42,225 bases of DNA from an uncultured Gammaproteobacteria bacterium (GTDB lineage: Bacteria; Patescibacteriota; Microgenomatia; UBA10105). The notes beneath the pieces were generated by a model. It was not told where the DNA came from, did not search any database, and saw only the letters and a program-made list of their open reading frames with translations. How positions within the stretch are numbered: position 1 is the first letter of the stretch; each line of letters opens with the position of its first letter. The stretch is taken from assembly GCA_964387625.1 (NCBI GenBank), contig CAYLWN010000004.1:1-42225 (forward strand), written 5' to 3'. Shown in pieces: positions 1 to 34,157 of this stretch. Made by a program: the position numbers and the translations under genes.

Positions 1-37
1 ATCAGGATGACAATATGAAAATGTTATAATAAATTTT

Positions 38-14204: not shown

Positions 14205-14435
14205 ATGTATAATTTTAATAATTACGGACCTCTTACTAATTGGACGAGTTTGTTTTTTCTACCTTTGCTGGTTCCGGCTTTAATTTGGTCATTTGTCTGG
14301 AAAGGATTAGCTCTTTATCGGTCAGCCAGAAACGGACAAAAAGGTTGGTTTATACTTTTATTGGTTGTAAATACTGTAGGAATTTTGGAAATTATCTATC
14401 TGCTATTTTTCTCCAAAACAAAAGAGAAAAAATGA
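14205..14435 (+). CDS. Small two-TM membrane protein (resembles the DUF5652-type CPR proteins)
   Basis: 76 aa. WKGLALYRSARNGQKGWFILLLVVNTVGILEIIYLLFF. The family name is from memory only. Confidence 0.55.
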   Translation: MYNFNNYGPLTNWTSLFFLPLLVPALIWSFVWKGLALYRSARNGQKGWFILLLVVNTVGILEIIYLLFFSKTKEKK

Positions 14436-14441
14436 AACAAC

Positions 14442-14842
14442 CGTCATCCAGAACCCAGTCAGAACTGGGTGAAGGATCTCAATTATTTCACAAAATATCA
14501 TTATATAAATCTTTATATTTAGGATTTATTTTTTGTATAAGCTCTTTTTTATAAGTTCTGCTTTTTCCCTTTAGATATTTTTCTCTTTTAATTGCTTCTT
14601 CAATATTATTAAACACTTCAAAATAGACAAGTTTATGAAGATGATATTTTTTAGTAAATCCGTCAATAATATTATTTTTATGTTCCCAAACCCTTTTTAT
14701 AAGATTAGAAGTAACTCCGATATAAAGAACAGTATTATAAGAATTTGTGAATATATAAATAAAACCTCTTTTGATTTGCATATATTTATTATAAATATTG
14801 TGTGAGATTCTTCGTCCAGTTCTGACTGGACTCTGAATGACG
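14442..14842 (-). mobile_element. 401-bp cassette in which roughly 40-bp terminal inverted repeats enclose the GIY-YIG ORF (family C, putative autonomous copy)
   Basis: The left end is cgtcatccagaacccagtcagaactgggtgaaggatctca (14442-14481). The reverse complement of the right end (14803-14842) is cgtcattcagagtccagtcagaactggacgaagaatctca. Each arm also contains its own small hairpin. Confidence 0.8.
14488..14781 (-). CDS. Small stand-alone GIY-YIG nuclease (COG2827/URI-domain type)
   Basis: 97 aa. FIYIFTN (GIY), VLYIGVTSNL (YIG), R..EHK, EAIKREKYLKGKSR. Flanked by roughly 40-bp inverted repeats. Confidence 0.9.
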   Translation of the reverse strand: MQIKRGFIYIFTNSYNTVLYIGVTSNLIKRVWEHKNNIIDGFTKKYHLHKLVYFEVFNNIEEAIKREKYLKGKSRTYKKELIQKINPKYKDLYNDIL

Positions 14843-14906
14843 AGGAAAAATATTTAAGGCGACAGAATAATAATAGCATTAAATAAGTTATATAATTAAA
14901 AAAATT

Positions 14907-17900
14907 ATGAAATTAAATTCGGAACAAAAGAAAGCAGTAAGATTTGGGTTTGGACCACTTTTGATTATTGCCGGAGCAGGTACTGGTAAAACTACAGTTA
15001 TCACTGAAAGAATCAAGAATTTAATTATCAAACAAAATATTAAGCCCCAGGAAATTTTAGCCCTGACTTTTACTGAAAAAGCTGCCTTAGAAATGGAAAC
15101 CAGGGTAGATACAGCCATGCCTTATGGTTATACGCAAATGTGGATATCAACATTTCACAAATTTTGTGACCGGATTTTAAGAAATGAAGCAGTACATATA
15201 GGTTTAAACCCCGGATATAAATTATTTACAGATACTGATGCCACTATGTTATTTCGGAAAAATTTATTTAAATTAAATCTGGAATATTTCCGTCCCTTGG
15301 GTAATCCGGGGAAATTTATTGCTGGCATATTACAACATTTTTCAAGATTGCAAGATGAAGACATTAGTCCCACGCAATATCTTGCGTGGTGCAATGACAA
15401 ATTTCAAATGACCAATGACAAAAAAAATGAAGAAAATGTTTTAGAACAAAAAAAATATCAGGAATTGGCAAATGCATATAAATTTTATGCTGATTTAAAA
15501 ATTCAGGAAAATGTGATGGACTTTGGAGATTTAATTTCTAATGCGTTGCAATTATTCCGCACCAGAAAAAATATTTTAAAAAAATATCAAAGCCAGTTTA
15601 AATTTGTTTTAGTTGATGAGTTTCAAGATACAAATATCGCCCAGTATGAATTGATCAAACTTTTAGCACCACTAAATCCTCTCTCCGCCAGCCGGCGAAG
15701 CAGCCCTAACCTGACGGTTGTAGGAGACGATAATCAATCAATTTATAAATTCAGAGGCGCAGCTATTTCCAACATTTTGCATTTTCAAAAAGATTATAAA
15801 AACTGTCAACAAATAGTTTTACGGAAAAATTACCGTTCTTACCAATATATATTAGACAGCAGCCGTAAACTTATTAAGCACAATGATCCTGATACGTTAG
15901 AAGCCAAATTGGGGATCAGTAAAAATTTAACTGCTGTTAGAAAAACTGCCGATTTCCACAAAATTGAATTTATTCATGAAAATAGAGTGGAAGATGAAGC
16001 AGAAGTTGTTGCGAAAAAAATTAAAGAATTGAAAAGCAGTGTCATCCTGAACAGAGTGAAGGATCTGCCTATCGATACAATGCTTAAAGAAGATTCTTCG
16101 TCTTCGTCTCAGAATGACAGAAAGTGGAGTGATTTTGCGATTTTGGTCAGGGCCAATAATCATGCTGAATCTTTTATCCGTGCGTTGGGGAGAGCCTCTA
16201 TTCCTTATCAGTTTTTAGGACCGGCTAAATTATACAGACAACCAGAAGTAAAAGAACTGATTGCATATCTGCAAGTATTAAATGATTTTACAGACAACAG
16301 TGCTTTTTTCAAAGTTTTATCCATGCCATTTTTTGATATTTCGCAAAGAGATTTGATAGCTATCTCTAATTGGGCAAAAAGAAATCAACTGTCAATTTTT
16401 GAAGGCGTAGAAATCATTACCGGAGTGAGAATTGATGAAAAACTGCAATTGCCATTTATAAGCGATTTAACCCGGGAAAAAATTACCAAATTGGTAAAGA
16501 TGATATTAAACCACTTAAAACTTACCAACAAAGAAACAGCCGGACAAATATTATTTTATTTTTTGGAAAATTCCGGAATGTTAAAAAACATTTTGGAATT
16601 TAAAACTCCAATTGATGAACGGCAGGCGGGAAATATAACCAAATTTTTTAATAAACTAAAATCTTACGAAGCAGAGCATGAAGATGCATCAGTTATTGCA
16701 GTTTTAGATTGGCTAATGCTATCAATGGAATTGGGTGAGTCACCTCAAGCACAGGATATGGATTGGACTGACAACGATGCGGTAAATATCCTGACAACTC
16801 ACAGCAGTAAGGGTTTAGAATTTCCTGTAGTATTTTTAGTTAATTTGGTTTCGCAAAGGTTTCCTTCAACAGAAAGACATGAACAAATACCAATTCCCGA
16901 AGAATTGATAAAGGAAGTATTGCCAATTGGAGATTTTCATTTAGAAGAAGAGCGCAGACTGTTTTATGTAGGTATGACCAGGGCTAGGGATTTATTATAT
17001 TTAACAGCTGCAAATTATTATGGAGAGGGGAAACGTGAAAAAAAAATTTCTCCGTTTGTAAGTGAGGCATTAGACAAAAATTTTTCTTTTGAAAAAAATC
17101 CTAAAACAATAAATCAATTATCTTTGTTGGATTGGGGGAAATCCTTAAATCCTGAGCAAAGTCGAAGGACTCAGGATAAATTACATATTCATGGTGAGCG
17201 AAGCCGAACCATTAATTATTTATCATTTTCCCAAATTGAAGCATTTAAAACTTGCCCCTTACATTATAAATTAAGATATATTTTAAAAATTCCCACTCCC
17301 CCCTCCCCTGCTTTATCATTTGGAAGTTCTATGCATGCAACTCTCAAAAATATTTATGAAATCGTCAGACAAAAAATAAAAATAAATCACGAAACGCTTG
17401 AGCAATTATTGGAAAAAAATTGGATTAGAGAGGGATATGGAAATAAAAGTTATGAAAATTTAATGAAAGCCAGGGGTAAAAAATATTTATGGCAATATTT
17501 TAAAAAAGAATTTGATCCAAAAACAAAAGTTTTATTATTGGAGGAAAAATTTATGTTTCCGATTAGTTATTCTTCGAATTCGGTTTTACCGAATGAGAAG
17601 TTATTAAAGATTAGTTCTCGTTCTGCAAAGCAGGACTCGAACAATAAATTTCTCAAAATCGGTGGAAAAATTGATCGGGTAGATGATTTGGGAAAAGGAA
17701 TAATTGAAATCATAGATTATAAAACCGGTCGGGTACCATCGAAGCGGGAAGTGGATAAAGATTTACAGATGTCAATTTACGCTTTGGCAGCAACAGAAAT
17801 TCCTCATCTTCCTTTTGCAAAAAAACCTGAACAAATCAAATTATCTTTTTATTATTTTGATACCCAGGAAAAAGTTTCTACAGTTAGAACTCAGGATCAA

Positions 17901-18215: not shown

Positions 18216-19127
18216 TTATAAATTTATTTTGAATGATTGGGGGAAATAAATTTCTTTACCTCCAAAACCGGATTTGAATTTGGAAAATCCTAACCATTCT
18301 TTATTTAATTTTTCGTAACGTTCGTCATATATACCTTCAAAATCAAAATTTGTGCAATTCATTTTTTTTGCCTTTTTTAAACTTTCCCAAATCAGAAGAG
18401 TTGGTGCAAAATTTTGTTTGCCCGCGTTTGACGCGGCTGCCATCCAATAATAAGCAGTATTTTGCCAGATGAGAATTAAGACTCCGGCGATAAATTTATT
18501 GTTCGAGTCCTGCTTTGCAGAACGAGAACTAATCTTTAATAACTTCTCATTCGGTAAAACCGAATTCGAAGAATAATGAGCAATGTTTATCTTTGCCAAT
18601 AATATAAAAGCATTATTTGGTGCAAAAGTTTTCCATATTGGTTTAAGAGTTTGTGTAGTTAAAAATCCCAAAAATCCGGCTGATGAACCTTTAAGTTTAA
18701 TAAAATCTTCAATGTTATTAGAGTGAAATATTTCAACACCCAAATTTTGCGCCCGTCTAACTGCTTTTCTTTTAGCTCCTGAAAATTTATTAAATATTTC
18801 TGACTCATCAGGAAGTAAATCAATAAAAATTGTTTTTGTAGGTAAAAATGGAGACGTCAATGATTTTAAATTAGAGATTGCCACGTCGTCCTTTGGACTC
18901 CTCGCAATGACATTAGGCTCGACGGAAATTGAATGGCTATGATATTTTTGCATTAATAGTTTTAGTTTATTTAACTGAGGCAATTTATCAGATCTTTGCA
19001 ATTTCATAACTGCAGGTAATAATGGAAGTTTTTTAATAAAAATATTTACCCCATCAATATTTTCCACATTCCACCCAATTTTATTCATGAACTGAGCATA
19101 TGTTGAAGATTGATGTATGTCTTGCAT
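18216..19127 (-). CDS. FemAB/MurM-family aminoacyl-tRNA-dependent peptidoglycan peptidyltransferase (paralog 1)
   Basis: Colinear with paralog 2: VEPNV, KRKAVRRAQNLGVEI, YYWMAAASNAG, FDFEGI, GFSKFKSGFGG. The ORF is open to 19172. The ATG at 19127 (MQDIHQS) aligns better with paralog 2. Confidence 0.8.
   Translation of the reverse strand: MQDIHQSSTYAQFMNKIGWNVENIDGVNIFIKKLPLLPAVMKLQRSDKLPQLNKLKLLMQKYHSHSISVEPNVIARSPKDDVAISNLKSLTSPFLPTKTIFIDLLPDESEIFNKFSGAKRKAVRRAQNLGVEIFHSNNIEDFIKLKGSSAGFLGFLTTQTLKPIWKTFAPNNAFILLAKINIAHYSSNSVLPNEKLLKISSRSAKQDSNNKFIAGVLILIWQNTAYYWMAAASNAGKQNFAPTLLIWESLKKAKKMNCTNFDFEGIYDERYEKLNKEWLGFSKFKSGFGGKEIYFPQSFKINL
18492..18575 (-). repeat. Family A element (A3), 84 bp, in-frame in Fem paralog 1
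   Basis: Exact reverse complement of 17568-17651. Encodes the same 28 aa in the minus-strand gene. Confidence 0.9.
18874..18911 (-). repeat. Solo family C arm, in-frame in Fem paralog 1
   Basis: The coding strand reads gtcattgcgaggagtccaaaggacgacgtggcaatctc (GTCAT...AATCTC with an inner hairpin). Translated as VIARSPKDDVAIS. Confidence 0.55.
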
Positions 19128-25377: not shown

Positions 25378-25498
25378 GTCATGCTGGAATCCCGATCGCA
25401 ATCGTGAACGATAGCATCTTCTTATTTAAAATAGATTCTATCGCTTCTCCCGATTTTCTTTGAATAATTAATGATTATCGGGATCGCTCCAGAATGAC
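25378..25498. repeat. Family C MITE-like hairpin element (intergenic)
   Basis: gtcatgctggaatcccgatcgcaatcgtgaacgatagcatcttc ... gattctatcgcttctcccgatt ... cgggatcgctccagaatgac. Nested inverted repeats over about 121 bp. Confidence 0.8.
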
Positions 25499-34010: not shown

Positions 34011-34053
34011 AAATTAAGTGTAGCATAACAAAATAATTTAACCATCTCTTTTT

Positions 34054-34140
34054 GTCATTCTGGAGCGAAACAAAGTGGAGCGATAGAATCTTTTTATAGA
34101 GCCTATCGTCTCCGCCTGATGGCGGATCCTCCAGGATGAC
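34054..34140. repeat. Family C MITE-like hairpin element (intergenic, upstream of the hrcA promoter)
   Basis: gtcattctggagcgaaacaaagtggagcgatagaatct ... agcctatcgtctccgcctgatggcggatcctccaggatgac. Confidence 0.8.
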
Positions 34141-34157
34141 AAATAAAGAAAAAGGGG

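Follow-up and report, generated by a model that had tools for sequence, protein, structure and literature searches.

Introduction

The CGTC-tagged repetitive extragenic palindromes (REPs) are short hairpins marked by a CGTC tag (variants TGTC and CCTC) that stays unpaired, with a stem that starts with A-T and T-A pairs and a short tail; stems measure 8-9 bp and loops 4-5 nt, and the repeats are multi-copy, mostly arranged as inverted dimers with spacers of 20-100 bp and often as heterodimers (Di Nocera, De Gregorio & Rocco 2013, PMC3733652). The family includes dRS3 of Neisseria and RPE-4 and RPE-6 of Rickettsia. Dimers inside genes encode 20-30 amino acids (aa), with an excess in genes for UvrABCD, UvrD/Rep, RecBCD, Pol I and ligase; the repeats were judged to have no dedicated enzyme, and five phyla were listed (PMC3733652). 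Here we analyze an 80-nt unit of this kind, at positions 16040-16119 of a 42,225-nucleotide stretch of patescibacterial DNA (contig CAYLWN010000004.1, positions 1 to 42,225; hereafter the window), where it lies in frame within a gene coding for a helicase-nuclease fusion.

A second body of work concerns hairpins that accompany a nuclease (Chenal et al. 2025, PMC11893778). These hairpins, called SRM in their general form and NTS in their Neisseria form (CGTCATTCCCGCGMAVGCGGGAATCYRG), flank small single-domain GIY-YIG genes (ssnA) in an NTS-ssnA-NTS architecture, and the Ssn proteins cut single-stranded DNA beside them, in Neisseria next to the GTC tag. The SRM search pattern was derived from 29 genomes of 4 phyla; that paper discusses neither repeats in coding sequences nor Patescibacteria, and does not cite the CGTC-REP work.

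The locus studied here has features of both. As in CGTC REPs, the window repeats have the tag, the A-T and T-A stem start and the tail, occur as multi-copy inverted heterodimers and include one inside a UvrD/Rep-type gene; they differ in having a 3-nt loop and two central mismatches, or a long inner hairpin, in belonging to Patescibacteria, which are not among the five listed phyla, and in flanking a candidate partner gene of the GIY-YIG type. As in Ssn/SRM systems, a protein of about 100 aa with a GIY-YIG domain is encoded between (C)GTCAT…ATC repeats dispersed through the genome, and it shares 41% identity with an NTS-flanked N. gonorrhoeae gene; the in-gene arm also has the tag, the A-T/T-A stem start and the ..ATC close of the NTS consensus CGTCATTCC..GGAATC (PMC11893778). 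Unlike them, the window repeats miss the published SRM pattern, and cleavage by the window protein is predicted by analogy. CGTC-REP dimers within UvrD/Rep and further repair genes have been on record since 2013 (PMC3733652) and no new kind of system is revealed; new are the example in Patescibacteria, a phylum listed in neither paper, and the presence of a nuclease cassette and an in-frame dimer 1.2 kb apart.

Results and Discussion

An inverted pair of tagged hairpin repeats lies in frame in the helicase gene

The unit reads TGTCATCCTGAACAGAGTGAAGGATCT-GCCTATCGATACAATGCTTAAAGAA-GATTCTTCGTCTTCGTCTCAGAATGACA (left arm, spacer, right arm; Table 1). Its core from GTC to GAC (16041-16118) measures 78 nt, or 26 codons, and the whole unit contributes 27 in-frame codons, translated as SVILNRVKDLPIDTMLKEDSSSSSQND. 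A sequence-only reading of this DNA had described here a derivative of the neighboring GIY-YIG cassette without an open reading frame (ORF), its arms joined by a loop of about 25 nt and translated within an open frame of 1037 codons. The observation is confirmed at 16040-16119: the peptide and the open frame are as described, and the spacer measures 25 nt.

The left repeat is laid out as TGTC-ATCCTGAAC-AGA-GTGAAGGAT-CT, with AGA as the loop and CT as the tail; its stem (ATCCTGAAC / GTGAAGGAT) has 9 positions, starts with A-T and T-A and contains two central G·A oppositions, and its loop has 3 nt. In the host frame it is read as (S)VILNRVKDL. The right repeat reads TGTC-ATTCTGAGACG..CGAAGAAT-CT on the minus strand, with its tag at 16119-16116, and is translated on the plus strand as (D)SSSSSQND. 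Judged by its sequence, each arm is a complete hairpin repeat by itself, which corrects the earlier description. The arms differ in subtype, the left one being ATC… and the right one ATT…, consistently so across the in-gene copies, and are a heterodimer in Di Nocera's sense. The tag is TGTC on both arms and CGTC at both ends of the cassette, and with multiple copies, inverted dimers and, within the gene, a 25-nt spacer, the family follows the organization of CGTC REPs.

The repeats are dispersed through the window. The head motif GTCATYCNGA occurs 5 times, against 0.39 expected, and none of 100 shuffles reached 5. At least nine units of the family lie within 42 kb, with dimers at 16040-16119 and 34053-34141, while the cassette is itself a dimer enclosing a gene. 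The intergenic dimer at 34053-34141, which has the same geometry with tags outward, shows that the dimer is a recurrent unit of this genome.

We consider it probable that the 80-nt unit is an inverted heterodimer of Ssn-type CGTC/TGTC repeats, translated with the gene and tolerated in a loop of the helicase. This reading builds on points that we regard as established and give below with their data: the arms belong to the repeat family, the unit is an insertion when compared with orthologs, the frame is kept, the insert lies in a loop, and the nuclease is homologous to the product of a Neisseria gene flanked by NTS.

A GIY-YIG nuclease cassette bounded by related repeats lies upstream

The cassette (14442-14842) is found about 1.2 kb upstream of the in-gene dimer, between a DUF5652 gene and the helicase gene; its repeats flank the GIY-YIG ORF on both sides and recur elsewhere in the window, as SRM repeats do. 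The left end reads GTCATCCAGAAC[CCAGTCAGAACTGG]GTGAAGGATCT and the right end AGATTCTTCG[TCCAGTTCTGACTGGA]CTCTGAATGAC. An additional inner hairpin, absent from the in-gene arms, is present in both (ACCCAG..CTGGGT on the left, TCCAGT..ACTGGA on the right), and both are predicted to fold into a 4-bp base and a 7-bp inner stem. With this hairpin set aside, the in-gene arms match the cassette ends at 43 of 46 bases (left outer 11/12, left inner 11/11, right inner 11/12, right outer 10/11), in agreement with what the sequence-only reading had noticed.

The cassette encodes a 97-aa protein in which PF01541 spans residues 6-78 and no other domain is present; its size is that of the Ssn family, the cd10448 clade, whose single-domain GIY-YIG proteins have about 100 aa. 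By tblastn it matches an N. gonorrhoeae gene with 41.1% identity over 93% of the query (E 4e-18; the subject is a chromosome filed among plasmids). This gene is flanked by nine perfect NTS copies, which form dimers with tags outward on either side, the geometry of the in-gene unit, and all nine are matched by the SRM pattern; from this architecture we take the gene to be ssnA. Through it, by proxy, the window protein lies within the E value used for Ssn homology (below 1e-10). Searches of PDB and NCBIfam with the protein gave weak generic matches, among them UvrC and UPF0213 at E about 0.2, and it scored far under the cut-off of the NCBIfam group I intron endonuclease model.

The likeness between arms and cassette ends could also mean that the unit is a miniature inverted-repeat transposable element (MITE), an internal-deletion derivative of the neighboring cassette which, stripped of its ORF and inner hairpins, moved by transposition over 1.2 kb into the helicase gene. 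In favor of this are the 43-of-46 match, the nearness of the two, and the asymmetry that they share (ATCC..GGAT on the left, ATTC..GAAT on the right); the kinship with the cassette ends suggested by the sequence-only reading stands. Descent from this cassette fares less well. The spacer shows no resemblance to the interior of the cassette (its local alignment scores 7, where shuffles average 8.3), and no target-site duplication, as expected of a MITE, was seen in the flanks of the in-gene unit. Two orthologous loci carry dimers in the same loop with no cassette beside the gene, namely L004, where the DUF5652 gene abuts the helicase, and L005, whose dimer is a related one; the intergenic dimer of the window likewise exists as a unit of its own. 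Moreover, a scan with the conserved flanks of the left arm (GTCATCCWGAAC-N(1-20)-GTGAAGGATC) found them, with 1-20 nt between, in at least 119 loci of many phyla, with Nitrospirales, Bacteroidota, Acidobacteriota, Clostridia, Chloroflexota, Rickettsiales and Saccharibacteria among the matches listed. Because these flanks recur so widely, the likeness to the neighboring cassette is a likeness to a cross-phyla consensus, and is not specific to this cassette. We therefore regard a deletion derivative as unlikely; since the spacer is unrelated, a target-site duplication is missing and dimers occur with no cassette next door, "REP dimer", or a REPIN-like unit, is the better description.

The unit occupies a variable loop in which hairpins remain paired

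The insert corresponds to residues 378-404 of the host protein, between the helix at 361-378 and the motif IV strand at 410-414, and is flanked by IKELKS and RKWSDFAILVRAN. In an AlphaFold model of the host protein (72 aligned sequences, mean pLDDT 81.8) the pLDDT falls below 50 at residues 380-387 and 391-402, between well-predicted elements, and PDB alignments to Rep and PcrA pick up again immediately after the insert. The model is best read as placing the insert in a tolerated, disordered surface loop. The closest relatives of the helicase belong to Candidatus Gottesmanbacteria (Patescibacteria), and the metagenome runs that contain the sequence come from groundwater and soil.

Among 117 aligned orthologs, 111 are without the insert. 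Most have 10-19 residues across this stretch, compared with 36 in the window, and from the EDEA helix to motif IV the distant relatives have 28-33 residues at fewest, compared with 56. These numbers bear out the earlier view of an in-frame insertion at a place where helicases have a short connector; a native segment unrelated to the cassette ends and common to all orthologs, which would have spoken against it, does not appear in the alignment. Dimers in the same loop are carried by six orthologs (the window copy and its near-identical P0001; P0002, P0003, P0006, P0009 and P0027), in the DNA form GTCATC-YY…RR-GATC, spacer, GATT-YY…RR-AATGAC. The carrier helicases are only about 60% identical and are scattered over a neighbor-joining tree, each with an insert-free sister. 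Either a single old insertion was lost many times, or insertion recurred at a permissive spot: a left junction at the identical codon in 4 of the 6 carriers and a GTTTAA core shared by three spacers favor common descent, while turnover is favored by inner hairpins that are nearly identical and sit in different arms in L003 and L004, two loci with hosts from different clades.

The orthologous copies also reveal which pairing has been kept. The five stem-base pairs of each arm are 100% paired across the six copies, with four within-arm pairs changed on both sides (CT/AG, TT/AA, TC/GA, CC/GG), and none of 500 shuffles scored as high for within-arm pairing and covariation. Pairing between the arms reaches 86.7%, and one C·A pair is mismatched in all six. 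Because of this difference, the conserved structure is two local hairpins, as in Ssn substrates, and not the one long stem formed by both arms that the sequence-only reading had proposed. The series shows hairpins that stay paired inside coding sequence.

Three of the orthologs scored as insert-free (P0004, P0007 and P0031) contain in the pre-motif IV loop another inverted repeat of 13 bp, perfect in each copy and translated as GSDL..RSDP or LGSDPLGSDP; at least two kinds of palindrome have thus settled in this loop. With a strict regular expression for the linker, the loop was located in 9 of 80 metagenome loci, so this survey of loop hairpins is a small one.

Such persistence could mean that the hairpins are selected and not neutral, serving as Ssn nicking sites that modulate recombination, transformation or repair-gene expression, or forming a loop that alters helicase activity. 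Compensatory changes that keep the stems paired in six lineages would agree with this, as would the unrelated palindrome held by the same loop in three other lineages; for the excess of such repeats in replication and repair genes a functional effect has been speculated (PMC3733652), and in Neisseria the Ssn/NTS pair modulates transformation (PMC11893778). Yet the distribution is patchy, with an insert-free sister for every carrier, the window copy has lost the inner hairpins and folds weakly as DNA, and at a second site one arm of the L001 copy is decayed relative to the sister L127. The stem variants could stem from separate insertions of different subtypes, and the occupation of permissive, disordered loops only is what simple survivorship predicts. 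On balance, selection on the hairpins seems improbable to us. The related proposal that the pre-motif IV loop is a long-lived landing pad, in which an interaction between nuclease and hairpin is selected within repair-helicase genes, we would also treat as doubtful; if true, the hairpins would not be neutral selfish DNA and might act, for example, through programmed single-strand nicking that tunes recombination, transformation or gene expression.

The frame is preserved in all in-gene copies examined

From GTC to GAC, the six elements at this site measure 78, 84, 84, 99, 96 and 93 nt, all multiples of three, and none has a stop in the host frame. The same holds more widely, as all in-gene dimers examined, at four different sites, keep the host frame free of stops while being read in different frames (V-I…Q-N-D, C/S-H-P/S…L-R-M-T or …E-D-D). 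This repeated preservation of the frame argues for translation, since excision from the RNA would not require a kept frame.

The sequence-only reading had offered as a second explanation that the insert is removed or processed in the RNA, the arm stem being excised and the mRNA rejoined, or cut by RNase III, to give a protein without the 27 residues. As RNA the unit does fold into one long stem of moderate stability relative to shuffles (-24.2 kcal/mol, z -2.7), the orthologous copies are stronger (-33 to -47 kcal/mol, z -3.7 to -6.1), and pairing of inverted repeats is reported to trigger transposon excision from animal mRNAs (PMC11870413). Besides the frame, the invariant C·A mismatch and the better pairing of the local hairpins stand against it, and no intron-like structure was recognized: Rfam gave nothing over the whole window at the gathering score and chance-level matches only for 14300-16300 at E up to 1, no group I or group II intron RNA was found by Rfam, and no Hint domain is present in the 27-aa insert. 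No RNA run contained the sequence, with zero coverage in four metatranscriptome runs from the same studies, and the few 'joints' in metagenome contigs are short, low-identity pieces of other organisms, uninformative on excision. We know of no bacterial system that excises and rejoins such inserts, and we consider removal at the RNA level, for which we found no support, very unlikely.

Finally, the linker varies in length and sequence among orthologs and a coincidental resemblance of a native, lineage-specific segment might be imagined, but the 43/46 identity extends over four ordered segments, the head-motif enrichment was equalled in 0/100 shuffles, five other orthologs have the same tag and hairpin architecture and the repeat is found across phyla, so that this explanation is hardly credible.

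A presumably tolerated dimer with a candidate nuclease partner

Taking these data into consideration, we propose that the arms are the cognate DNA hairpins of the small Ssn-type GIY-YIG nuclease encoded between like repeats 1.2 kb upstream, and that the dimer sits in what appears to be a permissive surface loop preceding helicase motif IV. Transcription and translation of the gene would include it, adding 27 residues that are probably disordered and that the enzyme tolerates, the peptide itself being probably functionless. In single-stranded DNA each arm may extrude as its own hairpin, and an extruded arm would be a substrate for the nuclease. The dimer may have arrived or spread as a REPIN-like, non-autonomous unit dependent on the Ssn nuclease and on host repair. 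We infer cleavage by the window nuclease, and the age of the insertion likewise.

Several points weigh against this proposal. The in-gene unit folds weakly as single-stranded DNA (-8.1 kcal/mol, z -0.66); because this is no better than shuffles, the unit is possibly a decayed copy, for which recognition by the nuclease may have been lost. Its 3-nt loop and a stem with two mismatches depart from the 4-5 nt loops and 8-9 bp stems of the CGTC families, and the published SRM pattern, HGTCWYN(0-2)YYVSBRHN(0-5)WNVSBRGN(0-2)RNCYNB, has no match in the window on either strand; it does match other repeats at related loci (L001 12857; L003 4718 and 4778). Contigs of four groundwater metagenome runs carry the insert unchanged and an insert-free variant was not seen in them, so there is no sign of recent movement. 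The missing target-site duplication counts here as well, and translation of the insert is deduced from frame conservation. To our knowledge, no strand-transfer chemistry has been described for a GIY-YIG nuclease.

Three other systems invite comparison. Rickettsia palindromic elements (RPE; Ogata et al. 2000, cited in PMC3733652) are, like the present unit, palindromic selfish DNA placed in frame in several genes and sites, with proteins that are likely functional. RPE-1, by contrast, is a longer and unrelated palindrome, only RPE-4 and RPE-6 belonging to the CGTC family, and the host of the window DNA is no Rickettsia but a groundwater bacterium of small genome, either free-living or episymbiotic. 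The REPIN/RAYT system (REPtron) likewise has a single-copy gene for its enzyme, set between hairpin repeats of its own, and, at other places, numerous inverted doublets that are non-autonomous; it differs in having a GTAG tag and an IS200/IS605-like HUH/Y1 tyrosine transposase, which acts through a covalent intermediate and is unrelated to GIY-YIG. The Correia/NEMIS elements of Neisseria, bacterial MITEs that act as RNA hairpins (cited in PMC3733652), are similarly short and co-transcribed, with inverted ends and the capacity to fold as RNA. They lie in untranslated regions, have target-site duplications and lead to a cut transcript that is not rejoined, none of which was seen or is required for the window unit.

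The case joins two bodies of work, on CGTC REPs in 2013 and on Ssn nucleases in 2025, which do not cite each other (checked in one direction). Within one helicase family, such dimers are borne at four or more permissive sites. For annotation, odd low-complexity peptides in small-genome bacteria (VILxE.KD.., ..AQND, ..LRMT) find an explanation as translated repeats, and the ortholog set offers a clean natural series for asking whether hairpins in coding DNA are tolerated or maintained.

Further repeats in the window and at related loci

Table 1. Positions of the repeats, genes and other elements discussed; coordinates refer to the window unless a related locus (L) is named.
Feature	Position	Strand	Remarks
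In-gene unit, TGTCAT...ATGACA, 80 nt	16040..16119	+	inverted heterodimer of two tagged hairpin repeats
Left repeat (SRM / CGTC-type REP)	16040..16066	+	TGTC tag at 16040-16043
Spacer, GCCTATCGATACAATGCTTAAAGAA, 25 nt	16067..16091	+	no kinship with cassette interior
Right repeat, TGTCATTCTGAGACGAAGACGAAGAATC	16092..16119	-	stem base ATTCT / AGAAT
Host gene, UvrD/PcrA-type superfamily 1 (SF1) helicase fused to PD-(D/E)XK nuclease, 1037 aa	14907..18020	+	Pfam, NCBIfam
Cassette left end, CGTC-tagged repeat with extended inner hairpin	14442..14479	+	DNA fold -8.2 kcal/mol, z -2.84
Single-domain GIY-YIG nuclease gene, 97 aa, Ssn-family homolog	14488..14781	-	Pfam PF01541, E 1.3e-13
Cassette right end, CGTC-tagged repeat with extended inner hairpin	14806..14842	-	DNA fold -7.3 kcal/mol, z -2.68
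Intergenic dimer, same family and geometry (tags outward)	34053..34141	+	DNA fold -20.3 kcal/mol, z -4.89
Intergenic single repeat with long inner hairpin	25434..25498	-	repeat-family match
Possible single repeat (GTCATTGCG...GCAATC)	18876..18911	-	in frame in FemAB-like gene
Head of further repeat (GTCATCCTGA), fifth GTCATYCNGA copy	1..11	-	truncated by window start
Element B, two copies	17567-17651; 18492-18576	+; -	terminal inverted repeats TTATTSTTCGAA; both in frame, peptide SNSVLPNEKLLKISSRSAKQDSNNKF
Further dimers or clusters, same family	L001 11510-11626, 12719-12922; L127 4341-4451, 5517-5720		in frame
Further dimers, domain 1B region	L147 1003-1103; L167 997-1075		host frame is the only open one
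13-bp inverted repeat	L127 4026-4058; L129 2132-2170; L130 2108-2143		AGGGTCAGACCYT…ARGGTCTGACCCT in L127 and L130; variant in L129

Outside the pre-motif IV loop, the helicase-nuclease family has three extra sites with in-frame dimers, one of which coincides with the position of a second palindrome of the window, element B. Further dimers follow residues 507 and 889 in P0002 and P0004; the sister species represented by L001 and L127 share two extra sites, and one arm is decayed in L001. The L001 ortholog also contains a repeat with NTS stem arms (GTCATTCCCGCG...GCGGGAATC) around a long inner segment. In the same locus (P0002; L001 11195-11218), 21 nt past the right end of the dimer, a second copy of CAGAATGAC is read as QNDINKVQND and is a partial duplication of the element terminus.

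The in-gene spacer and the spacer of the intergenic dimer (34091-34124) have the 8-mer GCCTATCG in common, a marginal match, as 102 of 2000 shuffles scored as high. The lengths from GTC to GAC are multiples of three also for the cassette (14443-14841, 399 nt) and the intergenic dimer (34054-34140, 87 nt), neither of which is read through by translation; this may be a coincidence (about 1 in 9). The repeat-like hairpin at 18876-18911 on the minus strand, GTCATTGCGAGGAGTCCAAAGGACGACGTGGCAATC, contributes the peptide VIARSPKDDVAI to a variable loop in the FemAB-like protein, where orthologs have unrelated residues at similar length.

Among the matches of the cross-phyla scan, the dimer at L109 (452-477) lies in a long open frame, read as RSFTNVQDD..HSERSEES, just upstream of DNA ligase BRCT-like sequence, and that at L048 (222-246), from Rickettsiales, lies inside a frame of 960 codons. 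A frame of at least 250 codons spans about 11% of the 142 matches listed, several of those at ORF ends.

Element B is an unrelated palindrome of 85 nt, with copies 100% identical in the helicase gene and the adjacent FemAB-like gene. Its DNA fold has a z of -4.2, orthologs are without it, and AlphaFold models helicase residues 892-912 with a pLDDT below 50. Its features resemble those of a MITE-like element that was active recently and is, again, tolerated within coding loops. True inteins (Pfam Hint / Intein_splicing) occur elsewhere in some orthologs (P0012, P0098, P0107 and P0109, with helicases of about 1350 aa), and also in the second UvrD-type helicase of the syntenic block (L003 12918-15929). 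The helicase gene family collects several kinds of intervening elements.

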